A stretch of 36,043 nucleotides of DNA from IMG/VR virus record IMGVR_UViG_2693429599_000012, positions 1 through 36,043 of that record, one strand, 5' to 3'. Origin of the DNA: a virus. Its lineage: Duplodnaviria > Heunggongvirae > Uroviricota > Caudoviricetes. A program made the position numbers and the translations under genes. Of the stretch, positions 1 through 36,043 are shown piece by piece. Below the pieces are notes generated by a model. It was not told the DNA's origin, ran no database searches, and saw only the letters and a program-made list of their open reading frames with translations. Position 1 is the first letter of the stretch. Every line of letters starts with the position of its first letter.

Positions 1-351
1 ATGCGAGAGACAGTCGAAATTATGCGTTATCCCGTCACTCTTACACCCGCGCCGGAAGGCGGTTATATGGTTTCTTTTGTGGATATCCCTGAAGCGTTGA
101 CCCAGGGCGAAACTGTCGCTGAAGCGATGGAAGCGGCAAAAGATGCTTTACTGACCGCATTTGATTTTTATTTTGAAGATAACGAGCTTATCCCTTTACC
201 TTCGCCATTAAATAGTCACGATCACTTTATTGAAGTACCTTTGAGCGTCGCCTCTAAGGTATTGCTGTTAAATGCTTTTTTACAGTCAGAAATCACTCAG
301 CAAGAGTTAGCCAGGCGAATTGGCAAACCTAAATGTTGTAAACCCCAATAA
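1..351 (+). CDS. hicB: HicB-family antitoxin-like protein, C-terminally truncated or divergent
   Basis: ORF from ATG at 1 (alternative ATG at 22, MRYPVTLTPAPEGGYMVSF...). The first ~105 aa match my recollection of enterobacterial HicB through ...ITQQELARRIGKPK, then the ORF ends with CCKPQ-stop instead of continuing through the C-terminal DNA-binding region. No hicA is in the window. Confidence 0.6.
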   Translation: MRETVEIMRYPVTLTPAPEGGYMVSFVDIPEALTQGETVAEAMEAAKDALLTAFDFYFEDNELIPLPSPLNSHDHFIEVPLSVASKVLLLNAFLQSEITQQELARRIGKPKCCKPQ

Positions 352-30787: not shown

Positions 30788-31141
30788 ATGTTAAGTAAGC
30801 ATTTTTCTCGCAAGGAATTTAAATGTAAATGCGGAAAATGTGATTATGATACAATCGACGCTGAATTACTGGTGATTCTTGAGGATGTACGCGAACACTT
30901 CGGGAAACCAGTAATTATTAACAGTGGGAACCGTTGTCCGACTCATAACAAGAATGTAGGCGGTGCAACCAACAGCTATCACGTTCGAGGTCGTGCGGCT
31001 GACATTGTGGTCAAGGGTGTCTCCCCTGATATTGTCCATGCTTATCTTGATGGGAAATATCCTACTCAATACGGCTTAGGAAAATATAAAACCTTTACGC
31101 ATATTGATTCCAGATCGAAAAAATCACGATGGAATGGATAA
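30788..31141 (+). CDS. Peptidase M15-family peptidoglycan hydrolase (putative endolysin)
   Basis: Motif FSRKEF.C.CG.C......SGNRCPTHNKNVGGATNSYHVRGRAADI matches the zinc D-Ala-D-Ala carboxypeptidase-like (M15_3-type) signature. Confidence 0.65.
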   Translation: MLSKHFSRKEFKCKCGKCDYDTIDAELLVILEDVREHFGKPVIINSGNRCPTHNKNVGGATNSYHVRGRAADIVVKGVSPDIVHAYLDGKYPTQYGLGKYKTFTHIDSRSKKSRWNG

Positions 31142-31172: not shown

Positions 31173-31754
31173 TTAGAATATGCTGGCGACGTTAGCTATA
31201 TTTCTGACCATTTTTTCATTATAAACAAACGTTTCTGTAGCACCTTCTTTAATATCAAAATCACCTTTTACTAGGTTTTTCTTGATAAACAATTCTGCCG
31301 CGTATGCGTCTTTTTCGTCTTGAAATTCGAAAGTCTCGATGATATCAAATTTCATCTTATTCTGGCATCTTAGCTTATGTTTTCTCGTCAACACATTGTG
31401 ACTTACTCCAACCTTACCCACATCACCACACCGCATAACATATAATACTGGTTGCCCATTTTTATATTTGTTGTCATATTTGCTACGATTACACGGGCAC
31501 ACAGTAGGATTATGTAAGAATTGTTTTGCTGTTATATCTCTGATTCTTGCGCAGCTTTCACACTCTAGCACAATACGGCTATTGATTGATTTATACTCAC
31601 CTTTGAATCCGTGATAAATCAAGGGTAAACCCTCGTTTTCAATACGGGTCACGATCCTTGCTTCCATATCAATTGGATGTGATGGCGCTTTGCCATTTTT
31701 GGTGCGGATAAAATTGAACGGGATATCACATGCTTTGCGCACATCATTCATCAT
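31173..31754 (-). CDS. GIY-YIG / T5orf172-like domain protein with Cys-rich N-terminus (homing-endonuclease-like)
   Basis: GTGAGG RBS then ATGATG start at complement 31752-31754. Cys cluster CESCARIRDITAKQFLHNPTVCPC; C-terminal YVMRCGDVGKVGVS...GATETF resembles GIY-YIG motifs. Paralog of the 32283-33281 product. Confidence 0.5.
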   Translation of the reverse strand: MMNDVRKACDIPFNFIRTKNGKAPSHPIDMEARIVTRIENEGLPLIYHGFKGEYKSINSRIVLECESCARIRDITAKQFLHNPTVCPCNRSKYDNKYKNGQPVLYVMRCGDVGKVGVSHNVLTRKHKLRCQNKMKFDIIETFEFQDEKDAYAAELFIKKNLVKGDFDIKEGATETFVYNEKMVRNIANVASIF

Positions 31755-31794
31755 AAAAAACCTCACTTAATTTATCTTATAGGCATTACCTTTA

Positions 31795-32247
31795 ATGTTG
31801 ATGATCGAGTTCGTAGAAACCGAATTAACTAAACTGGCTTCCGAAATGGAAGAAGAAACTCCGGCAGAAGGAACCAGTATTAACGATCTTATTCTGGCAG
31901 CAGACACCGCAGATGATAAAGTGGTATTCGACGAAGTTGATCCGTCTCTGGTTGAAGCAATGAAAGAACCTGAGATCGTCATTGAAGAAACAAAAGAAGA
32001 ATCTCCAGCAGTTGAACCAGTGGTCGAAGAAGTTAAGTCAGATGTTGAAGAAGCACCGGAAGTTAAAGTGGAATCTCCGGTAGCCAACATTTTCTCTGAC
32101 GAAGCAGAGCATCGTTCCCCAGCACATGACACTGATTCATTTTGCGATCTTACTGGCTTCCGTCCGACCATTTGTTTGATCGGTGGCGGTCGTGGTTACT
32201 ACTCCTGCCCGTGGTCTTCAACCATTACAACAAATTTTTCTCAATAA
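31795..32247 (+). CDS. Hypothetical acidic protein (150 aa)
   Basis: Glu/Asp/Pro/Val-rich (EETKEESPAVEPVVEEVKSDVEEAPEVKVE); start codon choice uncertain. Confidence 0.4.
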   Translation: MLMIEFVETELTKLASEMEEETPAEGTSINDLILAADTADDKVVFDEVDPSLVEAMKEPEIVIEETKEESPAVEPVVEEVKSDVEEAPEVKVESPVANIFSDEAEHRSPAHDTDSFCDLTGFRPTICLIGGGRGYYSCPWSSTITTNFSQ

Positions 32248-32282
32248 ATAGTAGTGAACTTATTATTTTCGAGGACACTACT

Positions 32283-33281
32283 ATGAATACTACTTTAGCA
32301 AAGGATATCGAATTTACCGCAAAAAGCAAACGTGCGACCCCTCCGGTCGAATATGAAACCAGAATCATTAAAGTTTGTCAAGCGTATGGATGGTTATACA
32401 GTGGTTTTGTGCTTCCTGTAAAGAAACCATTCCAGAACACCAAAGTTTGCATAGAAGTTAACGGAAAGGTTAAAACGCCATGTATTAGTCATGTTCTAAC
32501 TGGTCAGTTTACTGGCAAAGATAGAGTATCACCGCCTAAGAAGAAGTTTAGATTTACCGAAGAAGAACACTTAGAAAACGCTCGCAAGTTCTACAAGCCG
32601 ATAGGGTGGGATGTGTTAGGTCTGGCTGAACCTTATCAGGGTGTTGACACTAAACTAATTCTTCGTTGTAAGTGCCACGGAAAGATTCACAAGAAAGGTG
32701 ATTTACACAATAACCGCAGACAAGGCGGGTTAACATGCCCTTTGGTTAGGGGTGTACTTAAATCAATTCAGAATGGTAGAAAACAGGTTATCAGAAACAA
32801 GTTTGCACAGCGCCCTATGCACTTTTATCTAATTCGTGTTGGCGAGAAGTTTTTCAAATATGGAATTACCACTCGCAAAGATCCGATGCAACGGGTAAGA
32901 GAACACCAGAAGCACACCAGCGAGAAAATCACCTTTGAATGCTCACATTTGTTTAACATTGGATGGAAAGCTGGTGATTTAGAAATGGGGATTAAAAAGA
33001 ATATTCAGGGCAAGAAAATCCCACGTAAGGTAATGAATAGCGGATTCACAGAAACGCTACCGATTAGCAAGCTGAAAGATGTTAAATCATTCATCAATGA
33101 ATACATCCACACCAACCCATCTAAGCCAATGTATTTTGATGATACCAACGCAATCAATCTGAACAACTACATTAGTGATGAAGACATAGAACGAGATTTA
33201 TCGCAGTGGATGAATGCACCGTTAGCTGATTTAACACCGGAAAACTTAGAACTCGATTTAAGCCCTTTAGAGGCTCTCTAA
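32283..33281 (+). CDS. GIY-YIG / T5orf172-like domain protein (homing-endonuclease-like), paralog of the 31173-31754 product
   Basis: GAGGA RBS before the ATG at 32283 (ORF track extends upstream to 32142). FYLIRVGEKFFKYGIT...GFTETL aligns with YVMRCGDVGKVGVS...GATETF; Cys/His cluster RCKCHGKIHKKGDLHNNRRQGGLTCP. Confidence 0.5.
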   Translation: MNTTLAKDIEFTAKSKRATPPVEYETRIIKVCQAYGWLYSGFVLPVKKPFQNTKVCIEVNGKVKTPCISHVLTGQFTGKDRVSPPKKKFRFTEEEHLENARKFYKPIGWDVLGLAEPYQGVDTKLILRCKCHGKIHKKGDLHNNRRQGGLTCPLVRGVLKSIQNGRKQVIRNKFAQRPMHFYLIRVGEKFFKYGITTRKDPMQRVREHQKHTSEKITFECSHLFNIGWKAGDLEMGIKKNIQGKKIPRKVMNSGFTETLPISKLKDVKSFINEYIHTNPSKPMYFDDTNAINLNNYISDEDIERDLSQWMNAPLADLTPENLELDLSPLEAL

Positions 33282-33354: not shown

Positions 33355-35034
33355 TTAAATTCCAAATTCCTGTAATGGACCTGGTATTTCCTCTTCTGGT
33401 TTCCAGTTCTTATCTGTCAGCATGTCTAAACATGGATGCAAAACAAGCCCGTTACTTTCCAGAATCTGTCTATCATTGATAGTTTTCAAATCAACGAAGA
33501 TCCGGCCTTTCCTCGGTCCTCTTGAATTTTCTATTACAACTCTCTGGGTCTTGCCATCGATGTATTCCAGTACAAACAAGTTTTTGTACTTGTCAATCCT
33601 GCTACACCCGATCCGTTTTAGAGCTTGCTTAATCTTAAACCGGACCTTAATGCGATCCTCGTTGTAAACATCTTCTAAATCAAATTCTGCGAGCTTCTCC
33701 CAGCCTTGAGAGTCAACAGAATACATTTCCTCTTCTGCCATCTTAATTTGATTGTAGAGTGTTTCACGCTCGCTATTGAGGGTAGTAATCTGATCGGCTA
33801 GCTCCTTCGTTGCTCCTGTCATAGCAGAAAGGGTAATCAGGTTATCAATCTTGCGTGATATTTCATCAATCTGTACTTTCAAAGCCGGAACCGGATTAGC
33901 CTTATCCTCAGCAATCCAGATTTTATCAGCCAGCAATTGCAATACAGCTTTCTCTAATTGATCACCTCGAAAACTCCAGTTTGTATGCACACATGCAATA
34001 CGACTAGAGCGCATTGCATCGCATGAATAACGATATTGGTTAGGACGTTTGTTAGTTCCTTTCACCTTAACCATAGCGGAACCGCAATGTTCACATTTCA
34101 ATAGACCAACACCACTAAGCAAGGGAATAGGTTTAACTTCTTCCTTGTCTCCATAGTTACATGCTCTAACACCAATGCTTTTCTTAAGGTGATAAAACTC
34201 AGCGTCATCTAGCACACGAGGATAATAATCCTTTAACTCATACTTAACGCCATCTACAGAGATTTCCTTGATACCAATCAAAGCGCGGGTATGGAACAAC
34301 CTTTCAATCATTGCCCGTGACCAGTTTGAATGCCTCTTGTGACTTGCGGCTGGTGGTGGTGTGTATGTCGCGTTAAGGTGATCCAGTATCTCGGCGGTTG
34401 ACCGTCCATTCCTGCGTAATTCCACAACTTCCTGAACAATAGGGAAGAAGACCGGATGAGGAAGCACATAACCAGATGTGGTATCAGTCCACCACATATT
34501 CTTTCCAATTTCCTCGATTGCAACAGCCGGATTTTGTGGATTTTCTTGATGAGCTTTAATCTTAATCAATGCGCTTGAGTTAGTACGATTGCGCTTAGTC
34601 TGACTTTCCTCGTTAGCTCTCGCAAACAACATGACACTCAACAGCAAATCAATAGGATTGGCATTAACCGATTCCTTGCTATAGACCTTACCATCCATGC
34701 CAGTTACGATAGTTATTCCCCTACGGATAATCGAGAGAAATAGCTCTTGTGCTTCAATGATGGATTGGCGAGAGATACGGTCTAAGTTTTCCACAACCAG
34801 CCAGCTACCAACCGGAACGGATCGACCAATCTCATCCAGAAAGCGAGATAGTGCACCTGTTCTACTGTTAGCCCCTTTGAATGCAGATACACCAAAATCC
34901 TGATAGCTTGTAACTAGCTCAAGATCATATTTTGCGGCTATCTCTGCGGCTGTTCTCTTCTGGCGTTCATAAGAACTACCATCCGCTTGCTTCATAGACG
35001 AGAAGCGAATATACGAATACAGTTTAGTTTTCAT
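33355..35034 (-). CDS. Large serine recombinase (integrase-type)
   Basis: N-terminal resolvase-type catalytic motif YSYIRFSSMKQADGSSYERQ (catalytic Ser in FSS); recombinase domain; zinc-ribbon-like CEHCGS...YRYSCDAMRSSRIAC; C-terminal coiled coil. Start placed at ATG complement 35032-35034 (the track's 35049 start is TTG). Confidence 0.85.
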   Translation of the reverse strand: MKTKLYSYIRFSSMKQADGSSYERQKRTAAEIAAKYDLELVTSYQDFGVSAFKGANSRTGALSRFLDEIGRSVPVGSWLVVENLDRISRQSIIEAQELFLSIIRRGITIVTGMDGKVYSKESVNANPIDLLLSVMLFARANEESQTKRNRTNSSALIKIKAHQENPQNPAVAIEEIGKNMWWTDTTSGYVLPHPVFFPIVQEVVELRRNGRSTAEILDHLNATYTPPPAASHKRHSNWSRAMIERLFHTRALIGIKEISVDGVKYELKDYYPRVLDDAEFYHLKKSIGVRACNYGDKEEVKPIPLLSGVGLLKCEHCGSAMVKVKGTNKRPNQYRYSCDAMRSSRIACVHTNWSFRGDQLEKAVLQLLADKIWIAEDKANPVPALKVQIDEISRKIDNLITLSAMTGATKELADQITTLNSERETLYNQIKMAEEEMYSVDSQGWEKLAEFDLEDVYNEDRIKVRFKIKQALKRIGCSRIDKYKNLFVLEYIDGKTQRVVIENSRGPRKGRIFVDLKTINDRQILESNGLVLHPCLDMLTDKNWKPEEEIPGPLQEFGI

Positions 35035-35052
35035 ACCATTTCCAAACAAAAA

Positions 35053-35083
35053 CGCCCCTACCGCGTATTATAACGATAGGGGC
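35053..35083 (-). terminator. Terminator-like hairpin between the secreted-protein gene and the recombinase gene
   Basis: On the minus strand GCCCCTA-16 nt-TAGGGGC followed by GTTTTTGTTT; the loop contains TATAAT. Confidence 0.4.
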
Positions 35084-35099
35084 ATTGGTTAGTAAGTCA

Positions 35100-35345
35100 T
35101 TAATATTTCTTTCCAGTTAGTTTTGCATCACGTTTATTAATATCCTCGATATGACTCCATACACACGCAGTAATAAAGTCGTCATCGTCACCAACTCCGG
35201 CAACCTGTGCTAATTCAGTACACAGTTGATTTAAAGAAGGTGCAACGGCAGCACGTTTGACACTATCACCCTGTACATATTGTTCGGCATTCGCAGCACC
35301 AACCAAACCCAGAGCAAGAACAACACCCGCGATAATCTTTTTCAT
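35100..35345 (-). CDS. Small secreted protein (81 aa) with Sec-type signal peptide
   Basis: AAGAGGA RBS; MKKIIAGVVLALGLVGAANA then AEQ (signal peptidase I-like site, no lipobox); mature ~61 aa with two Cys and a DDDD run. Confidence 0.6.
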   Translation of the reverse strand: MKKIIAGVVLALGLVGAANAEQYVQGDSVKRAAVAPSLNQLCTELAQVAGVGDDDDFITACVWSHIEDINKRDAKLTGKKY

Positions 35346-35390
35346 AGTAGAATTTCCTCTTGTTATTTGAATTACGATATATTTATATCG

Positions 35391-35516
35391 TTAAAAGTTA
35401 ATACTAATAATCAGACCAAACACAACCGCGCCAATCAAATCCATCCAGTTAATACACAATCCGCTATATTCTTTCTTGAATGTCTTAGATGAAATGCCAT
35501 CATGAAATTGTTTCAT
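35391..35516 (-). CDS. Tiny hydrophobic peptide ORF (41 aa)
   Basis: MKQFHDGISSKTFKKEYSGLCINWMDLIGAVVFGLIISINF; weak SD-like GGGGTGAG upstream. Below the ORF track cutoff. Confidence 0.3.
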   Translation of the reverse strand: MKQFHDGISSKTFKKEYSGLCINWMDLIGAVVFGLIISINF

Positions 35517-35519
35517 TGC

Positions 35520-35600
35520 TCACCCCATACTAACGACAAGATAAGAAAGACTAATCATAGTTGTGAGACTACCTCCCACGAATGAGATAAAAGCTAACAT
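35520..35600 (-). CDS. Tiny hydrophobic peptide ORF (26 aa)
   Basis: MLAFISFVGGSLTTMISLSYLVVSMG; GGAGAA RBS 7 nt upstream; directly downstream of a terminator-like hairpin. Confidence 0.3.
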   Translation of the reverse strand: MLAFISFVGGSLTTMISLSYLVVSMG

Positions 35601-35614
35601 GTTTGATTCTCCAT

Positions 35615-35642
35615 TTAAAAAGCGGTGGGAATTACACCCACC
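35615..35642 (-). terminator. Terminator-like hairpin downstream of the 35657-36043 gene
   Basis: On the minus strand GGTGGG-7 nt loop-CCCACC followed by GCTTTTTAAAT. Confidence 0.45.
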
Positions 35643-35656
35643 AAATTAGAAATTAA

Positions 35657-36043
35657 TTAAGCGCGAACGATGGTCAGAGTATCCAGCAAACCTTTTTCGT
35701 ATAATTCGAAACACGTTTTATATTGCTCAATCTGGAAACCATAGCGGGTGATCTTATTCAGTAGAATAATCACGGTATTCTCATCTAGGTATTGTCCTTG
35801 CTTACCAATTACATATGACTCGCGGGATAGTCTCAGCTTACGGAAACCTTTAACACCTAATTCCTTAGCCACCGCTTTAATCTCTTTAATCTCACCCTCA
35901 GCAGCTACATATTCAGCGTCGATAATCTCAGGTGATGATCTCAGTGCTACCAGAACTAAGGCCATTGCTTCTTCTTCGGTACGAGCAACACCAGCTTTCT
36001 CGAAAGTCATCTCGCCAAATTTACGAATCATGATATTGAACAT
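35657..36043 (-). CDS. Hypothetical protein (128 aa or longer; may extend past the window edge)
   Basis: ORF reaches the last base of the window with an ATG at the edge; no motif recognised. Confidence 0.45.
   Translation of the reverse strand: MFNIMIRKFGEMTFEKAGVARTEEEAMALVLVALRSSPEIIDAEYVAAEGEIKEIKAVAKELGVKGFRKLRLSRESYVIGKQGQYLDENTVIILLNKITRYGFQIEQYKTCFELYEKGLLDTLTIVRA

Follow-up and report, generated by a model that had tools for sequence, protein, structure and literature searches.

Within a tailed-phage prophage stretch of 36,043 nucleotides (nt) (IMG/VR virus record IMGVR_UViG_2693429599_000012, positions 1 to 36,043; hereafter the window), two tiny open reading frames (ORFs) occupy the minus strand between the attachment site and the gene of a large serine recombinase; a preceding sequence-only reading had noticed both and come close to their likely biology. 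Comparison with related loci indicates that ORF1 (35520..35600; 26 amino acids (aa), MLAFISFVGGSLTTMISLSYLVVSMG) and ORF2 (35391..35516; 41 aa, MKQFHDGISSKTFKKEYSGLCINWMDLIGAVVFGLIISINF) are real, conserved and essentially unannotated genes of a new family, which would add two microprotein genes to the prophage biology of Escherichia coli and Salmonella. On balance, we favor the reading that they encode a coupled pair of inner-membrane microproteins, which would be driven from the phage attachment site (attP) and would act on the cell envelope together with exchangeable cargo. The most interesting lead is the putative attP promoter itself, which integration would split.

Taken alone and without comparison, ORF1 and ORF2 lie within chance expectation; the six frames of the window contain 170 ORFs of 20-45 aa that begin with ATG, 10 of them with a grand average of hydropathy (GRAVY) of at least 1.5. 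Both frames are open in 37 related loci, which represent 28 distinct haplotypes; ORF1 is found as the same open allele in 27 of the 28 E. coli haplotypes, and ORF2 is open in every locus examined. Counting all of the roughly 40 related prophages compared, a single one fails to keep both frames open. Variable sites within the E. coli lineage fall at codon positions 1, 2 and 3 in the numbers 1, 1 and 7 for ORF1 and 6, 1 and 11 for ORF2, and some ORF2 alleles carry 3-nt deletions that keep the frame. Furthermore, the rate of nonsynonymous substitution (dN) was below that of synonymous substitution (dS) in every computable pair for both ORFs, with an ORF2 dN/dS of about 0.1-0.3, close to the values obtained for the recombinase. 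The first 15 residues of ORF2, MKQFHDGISSKTFKK, are invariant between the E. coli and the diverged lineages despite 7 synonymous nucleotide differences, one serine even changing its codon family (TCA TCT versus TCT AGC), which points to selection on the peptide and not on the RNA. A lack of conservation among relatives, which the sequence-only reading had named as grounds for giving up its proposal, was thus not observed; the coding sequence of each tiny ORF is conserved.

E. coli has three widely differing alleles of ORF1, namely the window type, MNLLISFVCSVFLAILSSVYIVVVAVG (locus L010) and MKLLELLILSIFSAFVLAVYIVVIV (locus L090), and the diverged relatives L041-L043 have three more, giving six in all, every one hydrophobic; L041-L043 are probably of Salmonella origin, judging from the host range of the neighboring 128-aa gene. 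The diverged alleles (L010, L090 and L041-L043) encode 25-27 aa, are 35-69% identical and share a C-terminal Y-x-V-V, and ORF1 has a GRAVY of 1.6-2.3 wherever it was computed (window, L010 and L041-L043). A 29-aa ORF in locus L033 was considered as an unrelated hydrophobic replacement of ORF1 and rejected, since alignment with L090 identified it as the same allele, frameshifted; its product remains hydrophobic because the DNA is T-rich. The two genes are tightly spaced: ORF2 starts 3 nt past the ORF1 stop and in the same frame in the window, and in L042, where the ORFs also adjoin, they overlap out of frame by ATGA. A fusion is possible in the E. coli lineage, where both ORFs are read in one frame, and a 747-bp ENA contig (P0004) carries a natural 68-aa ORF1-ORF2 fusion through a TGA-to-TGG change. 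In a collection of 5.8 billion proteins, ORF2 is represented by 11 protein clusters at 60-95% identity, all of 40-41 aa bar one 68-aa fusion.

The membrane-peptide look that the tiny ORFs had been credited with is borne out by their hydrophobicity. ORF1 has a GRAVY of 1.62, no charged residue, a length of roughly one membrane span and a single predicted transmembrane helix. ORF2 combines a polar, net-positive and lysine-rich N-terminal half with a C-terminal predicted transmembrane helix, its last 21 residues having a GRAVY of 1.78; by the positive-inside rule, ORF2 would be tail-anchored with its N terminus in the cytoplasm. Searches of Pfam, NCBIfam and PHROGs (E <= 1) and of PADLOC (E <= 0.1) returned nothing meaningful for the three small proteins of the region, their alternative alleles or the cargo proteins. 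Likewise, tblastn of ORF2 against sequenced phages and plasmids gave noise only and no homologue, a degenerate DNA pattern for the ORF2 N terminus had 0 matches in the GTDB species representatives, an Rfam scan of the region found no relevant family, and a literature search with the peptide sequences and the accession found no paper. RefSeq lacks any annotation over the ORF1-ORF2 pair in 55 of the 57 genomes that carry it.

Only ORF1, ORF2 and the recombinase are constant across the relatives; all else varies. The pair is present wherever this recombinase is intact and is confined to its lineage, and within IMG/VR, ORF2 occurs only on contigs that carry the recombinase. In one decayed prophage (L092, NZ_AP027619.1), the insertion sequence IS1 has eliminated the whole stretch from ORF1 through the recombinase. 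The recombinase (integrase, gene int; 33355..35034, minus strand, 559 aa from its ATG) contains Resolvase (7.5e-15, 55.7 bits), Recombinase (1.3e-7, 32.2 bits) and Zn_ribbon_recom (6.8e-10, 39.6 bits) domains, all above the Pfam cut-offs, and matches the PHROG 95 integrase at 2.8e-56; the nearest phage integrases are about 30% identical to it. The constant partners of this serine integrase are thus two probable membrane peptides and not a recognizable directionality factor. A scan of the GTDB species representatives with a recombinase profile returned only relatives of at most 37% identity, with no tiny hydrophobic ORFs upstream; two of these lie in ycdX.

The region occurs in 58 of 5426 complete E. 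coli genomes, and ORF1-ORF2 alone in 57 (about 1%). The prophages, which have a lambda-type tail tip, are inserted either inside hicB, beside ydcR, or inside ycdX, beside the curli csg genes. In the window, the prophage boundary is marked by the N-terminal part of host hicB (1..351, plus strand; Pfam HicB_lk_antitox, 5.6e-8), which runs into phage DNA, and split hicB pseudogenes are annotated by RefSeq at both prophage ends. Neither the region nor the structural genes had a relative at the DNA level among sequenced phages, and a literature search found no description of a phage integrating in ycdX. As an aside, recombinases that are 87-94% identical target two different host genes, the antitoxin gene hicB and the phosphatase gene ycdX (window 1-351; L038, L039, L077 and L078), and distant recombinases of about 33% identity in Escherichia sp. 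ESNIH1 and Leclercia also reside in ycdX. Insertion in hicB leaves hicA with a truncated hicB.

To define attP, we reconstructed it from the attL and attR junctions by joining window positions 325-342 of the minus strand to positions 262-302 of locus L011. The P arm of attP (325..342, minus strand), at the opposite end of the prophage, holds a -35-like TTTACA (342-337) and the crossover core (333-325), which comparison of both junctions identified in the hicB lineage as TTTAGGTTT. The reciprocal bacterial site, attB, is contiguous inside hicB in 5221 of the 5426 E. coli genomes, indicating that the core assignment is sound. The reconstructed attP of the hicB lineage reads GGGG TTTACA acaTTTAGGTTTccctaa TATAAT gccccc and agrees with the sigma-70 consensus at 11 of 12 positions, with the -35 on the P arm, the -10 on the P' arm and the crossover core within the 18-nt spacer. 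The TATAAT lies at positions 267-272 of L011, and the ATG of the 128-aa gene follows 30 nt downstream. Two ycdX lineages with different cores have the corresponding sites TTGACT-18-TATCAT and TTTACT-18-TATCAT, and the -10 arm, CCTAATAT(A/C)AT, is conserved even in the diverged relatives. Within the reconstructed 1.76 kb, which we scanned with a threshold of 9 of 12 positions, the attP site is the best promoter-like site.

The same scan of the integrated form detected no site of at least 9/12 upstream of ORF1, ORF2 or the cargo; the sole one left after integration is TTACTA-17-TATAAT within a terminator hairpin ahead of the recombinase gene, pointing into int. In the prophage, the first phage gene begins only about 36 nt from host DNA, the flanking host fragments lie on the opposite strand, and the host sequence that comes to stand at the -35 position matches the consensus at 0-2 of 6 positions for hicB and 3 of 6 for ycdX. 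In all three att lineages, the two promoter elements thus appear to be joined only in the circular, attP-bearing form. Since the single strong promoter-like site lies across attP and would be cut in two upon integration, we infer that the operon would be active while the phage DNA is unintegrated and mostly silent in the prophage. This would provide a simple tailed-phage case of an operon that may be switched by site-specific recombination through the splitting of its promoter and, if so, attP and its integrase would constitute a compact natural recombination-coupled switch.

The genes that accompany this core are exchanged freely. The 81-aa gene of the window (35100..35345, minus strand) behaves as an accessory cassette, being replaced, deleted or supplemented in related prophages. 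Reading its translation, we assigned a signal peptide to residues 1-20 (35345-35286) of the form MKK-IIAGVVLALGLVG-AANA, with predicted cleavage between ANA and EQ; the signal peptide, MKKIIAGVVLALGLVGAANA, has the positive n-region, hydrophobic h-region and A-x-A motif of a Sec-dependent substrate of signal peptidase I and no lipobox cysteine, and it leaves a mature protein of 61 aa with two cysteines. An AlphaFold2 (AF2) model of the protein is a helical hairpin with a predicted local distance difference test score of 78-93 in the mature part and the two cysteines on facing helices, for which Foldseek returned no fold match in the PDB at E <= 0.001. Homologues of at least 73% identity were found in E. 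coli only, and the exact protein occurs in 1732 blocks of an assembly collection; all places read were E. coli prophages of this type, with the gene beside this recombinase. In relatives, the gene is swapped after the common signal peptide for a 137-aa or 132-aa protein, or it gives way to a gene for a 75-aa secreted protein or for a 348-aa zinc-ribbon protein, or it is absent; the cargo of L043 is a lipoprotein. Other relatives carry an additional 113-aa gene for a membrane-anchored coiled-coil protein before the 81-aa gene, flanked by a 44-bp duplication of a segment with the ribosome-binding site (L039:2820-3240). In the diverged relatives, a cargo gene may sit between ORF1 and ORF2, in which case ORF2 directly precedes the terminator and int. 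The 81-aa gene would accordingly be one of several interchangeable, mostly envelope-targeted cargo cassettes.

The 81-aa signal peptide is fused to four other cargo proteins in relatives, and the placement of the breakpoint just past it suggests cassette exchange by recombination within the signal-peptide coding sequence. We also noted nearly the same signal peptide (MKKII..GLVGAANA) on unrelated mature proteins of 61, 117, 112 and 55 residues (window 35286-35345; L040:2857-3270; L042:5168-5566; L090:2170-2397), and that the cassette borders are repeated ribosome-binding segments. The motif GGAGAATCAAA(C)ATG precedes ORF2 in L090 (1990-2005), both ORFs in L010 (5725-5835) and ORF1 in other alleles. 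Even should the peptides have no phenotype, the locus would still illustrate clearly how cassettes are exchanged at repeated segments that contain ribosome-binding sites or encode signal peptides.

In the mechanism that we propose, ORF1 and ORF2 would be translationally linked genes for two single-pass inner-membrane microproteins, within an operon that runs from attP through an optional 90-aa gene, the 128-aa gene, a hairpin, ORF1, ORF2 and exchangeable cargo to a terminator and int. ORF1, ORF2 and the serine recombinase would form its invariant core, and the cargo in the window would be the 81-aa protein as a periplasmic helical hairpin. The operon would fire in unintegrated phage DNA, upon fresh infection or after excision; integration would dismantle the promoter, which bound integrase would probably also repress. 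ORF2, anchored in the inner membrane, would expose the invariant, lysine-rich peptide at its N terminus to a partner in the cytoplasm or the membrane, and ORF1 would be its partner within the membrane; the 15-residue N terminus would then serve as a handle for finding a host or phage target. Together with periplasmic cargo, the pair would alter the envelope during the episomal phases, most plausibly by blocking the entry of competing phage DNA or by modulating a host membrane protein. We tentatively rank such membrane-level exclusion or host modulation during infection or induction as the likeliest single function, above exclusion expressed by the lysogen and then a toxin or commitment device.

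Several observations weigh against this account. The promoter hexamers coincide with inverted-repeat half-sites for the serine integrase, so their likeness to -35 and -10 elements could be incidental. Pattern scans of IMG/VR and of JGI metagenomes found no intact attP, so that attP stands as a reconstruction and the phage is only putatively active. The prophage junction retains a perfect TATAAT, making low expression in the lysogen possible, and promoters that match at fewer than 9 of 12 positions escape the scan. Two terminator-like hairpins stand between the attP site and the downstream genes. At L033, ORF1 is an L090-type allele frameshifted by 1-nt deletions. The AF2 model of the natural ORF1-ORF2 fusion consists of two helices and is silent on their pairing, predicting only that the peptides are helical. 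Finally, exclusion is no better supported than any other membrane function.

Of the competing explanations, the one that survives best, which we regard as unlikely, treats the three small genes, in line with the sequence-only reading, as morons for lysogenic conversion or superinfection exclusion, expressed constitutively in the prophage from a missed promoter or the junction TATAAT and shielding the lysogen, for instance by obstructing a receptor or the entry of DNA. The genes do lie at the prophage end beside int, among exchangeable and mostly envelope-targeted cargo (signal peptides, the L043 lipoprotein, the membrane-anchored coiled-coil protein), a strong terminator closes the unit, and a perfect -10 survives integration. 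Nevertheless, from the junction to int the integrated form has no site of at least 9/12 save the one pointing into int, and the host flanks supply only the poor -35 matches given above for hicB and ycdX. Moreover, presence in some close relatives with absence or replacement in others, as expected of a moron, applies to the 81-aa gene and not to ORF1 and ORF2, which are core and not variable. The 81-aa gene itself bears no signature of foreign DNA (G+C 0.419 against 0.418 for the window); as for a promoter and terminator of its own, the terminator is present, and no promoter-like site of at least 9/12 precedes the gene, weaker sites falling below the cut-off of the scan. No known exclusion or defense family was matched.

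Rather improbable, in our estimate, is a type I-like membrane toxin or another killer or abortive-infection peptide that would depolarize the inner membrane, being off in the prophage and released upon excision or loss as an addiction or commitment device. At 26 and 41 aa, both products are small (under 60 aa) hydrophobic membrane peptides by prediction, as type I toxins are; a toxic product would go well with silencing through the splitting of its promoter, and a weak terminator before ORF1 would hold its level low. Against this stand the absence of an Rfam family, of a conserved antisense promoter and of a long structured 5' leader, the lack of similarity to any toxin family in Pfam, NCBIfam, PHROG, PADLOC or Rfam, the uncharged nature of ORF1, the coupling of two ORFs, which is unlike known type I loci, and the cargo genes found between ORF1 and ORF2 in some relatives. 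A candidate promoter for an antisense RNA on the plus strand (35382-35411) was rejected, as common synonymous variants destroy its -10. A more speculative and still less probable idea is that the microproteins act as an integration checkpoint, made only while the genome is unintegrated and imposing a membrane-level cost or block that is lifted when integrase splits the promoter; the block could take the form of growth arrest, depolarization or exclusion of competing DNA. If true, recombination would be the off-switch of a membrane effector, and excision would be the on-switch that commits the cell to lytic development.

The hairpin-then-ORF arrangement had also been likened to an attenuator, a comparison that did not hold. 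Hairpin T1 (35623..35643, minus strand; GGTGGG-TGTAATT-CCCACC, TGGTGGGTGTAATTCCCACCG, followed by GCTTTTT) immediately follows the stop codon of the 128-aa gene and precedes ORF1 by 22 nt, and is thus not downstream of a leader. It has six base pairs, a folding energy of about -11 kcal/mol and a modest z of -1.5 against shuffles, and each of the 28 E. coli haplotypes has it. L090 and L033 preserve the stem through compensatory or wobble changes (GCGGG/CCCGC) but have lost the U-tract and the Shine-Dalgarno GGAG. L041-L043 have no hairpin; there, the start of ORF1 overlaps or adjoins the stop codon of the preceding gene (ATGA, TAATG). The region forms only this one stable stem ahead of ORF1, with no leader ORF overlapping alternative hairpins, and the peptides are not free of selection, as dN is below dS and the ORF2 N terminus is invariant. 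Because an attenuator would need its leader before the terminator and a peptide free to vary, and neither holds, we read T1 as an intra-operon partial terminator or RNA-stabilizing stem of local importance only.

The second hairpin, T2 (35051..35086, minus strand), closes the small-ORF operon as a strong terminator of 13-14 bp (-25.6 kcal/mol, z = -3.96); a terminator scan picked up T1 and T2 alike. Its stem covaries in L043 (CCCCTA/TAGGGG to CCCCTC/GAGGGG), with the loop, TTATAATA, unchanged. This loop holds TTATAAT, and the resulting TTACTA-17-TATAAT, at 9/12, is a candidate weak promoter of the recombinase itself, embedded within the terminator of the upstream operon.

A broader version of the leader idea, in which translation of the ORFs itself matters and controls the downstream genes or int via the hairpins, is very unlikely. 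A hairpin does adjoin ORF1, the ORFs are tightly coupled, and ORF2 ends 304 nt before T2 in the window and directly before it in diverged relatives. The selection acts on amino acids, however: the nucleotide changes in the invariant ORF2 N terminus are all silent, and dN/dS stays far below 1. T1 precedes ORF1, and in relatives it lacks its U-tract or is missing altogether; the fold offers no alternative anti-terminator pairing, and the ORFs contain no runs of regulatory codons. The proposal that ORF1 and ORF2 are chance ORFs of an AT-rich spacer, without a product, has in its favor the 10 other hydrophobic ATG-ORFs of similar length in the window and the missing RefSeq annotation, and is contradicted by conservation, the codon-position pattern, dN below dS and frame-keeping alleles, so that it is hardly credible and, like a purely regulatory role, close to excluded.

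The two microproteins resemble known small membrane proteins in general form. The type I toxins Hok, TisB, Ibs and Ldr and the small membrane proteins KdpF, AcrZ and MgrB have 20-50 residues and one hydrophobic helix, and annotation often misses them. ORF1 and ORF2 share this size, a single predicted hydrophobic helix and the missed annotation, but differ in having no sequence similarity to them, no antisense RNA and no structured leader, and in being a coupled pair restricted to one prophage family. Envelope-directed phage exclusion proteins and morons such as HK97 gp15, T4 Imm and Sp, T5 Llp and phi80/N15 Cor are small accessory products of the phage, whether membrane proteins, periplasmic proteins or lipoproteins; with T5 Llp and T4 Imm, synthesis takes place in the course of infection and not from a prophage. 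Our locus likewise encodes small, apparently envelope-directed products with cargo exchangeable between related phages, but no homology to these proteins was seen, ORF1 and ORF2 are core genes, and no cassette-specific promoter was found.

With respect to the transcription unit, the lambda pL establishment transcript carries cIII, xis and int, and the proposed operon would resemble it as an early, terminator-regulated transcript that joins a small membrane-associated peptide to int. Lambda relies on repressor and N antitermination, whereas the operon here would rely on a split attP promoter, and ORF2 has no similarity to CIII and shows no sign of acting on FtsH. A historical analogue is the split-operon proposal for P2 int, reportedly made by Bertani in 1970. 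In the integrative and conjugative elements (ICEs) ICEKp1, ICEclc and ICEEc1, int promoters are state-dependent: excision joins the ends, so that a promoter at one end transcribes toward int at the other, integration removes this drive, and 5' stem-loops attenuate the transcripts (Liu et al., NAR 2026, PMC13023037). As in these ICEs (PMC13023037), joining of the ends would restore transcription toward int here and integration would end it. Unlike the ICEs, our element is a tailed prophage with a large serine and not a tyrosine recombinase, its -35 and -10 reside on opposite attP arms, which would divide the promoter physically, the genes of two microproteins and the cargo intervene between promoter and int, and the arrangement is known from sequence alone. 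The KplE1 intS promoter overlaps attL and is subject to negative autoregulation (Panis et al., PLoS Genet 2010, PMC2951348). The attP site would share with KplE1 (PMC2951348) a position within the recombination region, where bound integrase can repress it; in KplE1, by contrast, the prophage retains an intact promoter (at attL) that transcribes int directly, whereas the strong site of our element is confined to attP, and the T2 loop offers int a second candidate promoter.

The hairpin, GGAG, 26-aa ORF, 41-aa ORF, 81-aa signal-peptide ORF and recombinase were all located on the minus strand where the sequence-only reading had placed them, the GGAG of ORF1 (35609..35612) lying 8 nt before its ATG. 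The first gene of the operon in the window, on the same strand (35657..36043), encodes a 128-aa protein with a SAP/Rho_N-like motif, for which the Rho_N match is weak; it matches phrog_14908 (4.5e-18), whose function is unassigned in PHROGs. Homologues occur in Escherichia, Shigella and Salmonella only and are almost all named hypothetical, and a sequence search of the PDB with the 128-aa and 137-aa proteins gave nothing significant. In relatives, this gene is preceded by a 90-aa gene, swapped for an 89-aa gene with the breakpoint exactly at the stop, or replaced by other genes.

A 45-nt spacer between ORF2 and the 81-aa gene contains an AT-rich palindrome, CGATATAAATATATCG, just 3' of the ORF2 stop (35375..35390, minus strand). 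Its fold is weak (-6.7 kcal/mol), and in the diverged relative L042 it reads CGTTATAAATATAACG, with symmetric changes that keep it palindromic; it could be an operator or the stem of a small RNA. Between the -10 and the first gene (L011:273-296, just past window position 36043), we further observed CCCCC and GGGGG separated by 12 nt, the GGGGG being the ribosome-binding site. Speculatively, their pairing would sequester this site in transcripts begun upstream of the attP promoter and not in those started at the promoter.

A homologue of the Peptidase_M15_3 endolysin is encoded at window positions 30788-31141, on the other strand and about 4 kb from ORF1 and ORF2. Holin or lysis-cassette proteins were considered as identities for the two ORFs and ruled out, given this distance and strand and the C-terminal ends of the peptides, which are hydrophobic and not the charged tail of a holin. 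The stretch from the recombinase to the lysis genes (window 31173-33281; about 8000-10200 in L001-L010) is a second variable hotspot, which contains, depending on the prophage, CapR-like, MUG113/T5orf172-like zinc-ribbon and UvsW-like helicase genes and may be a defense or anti-defense island.

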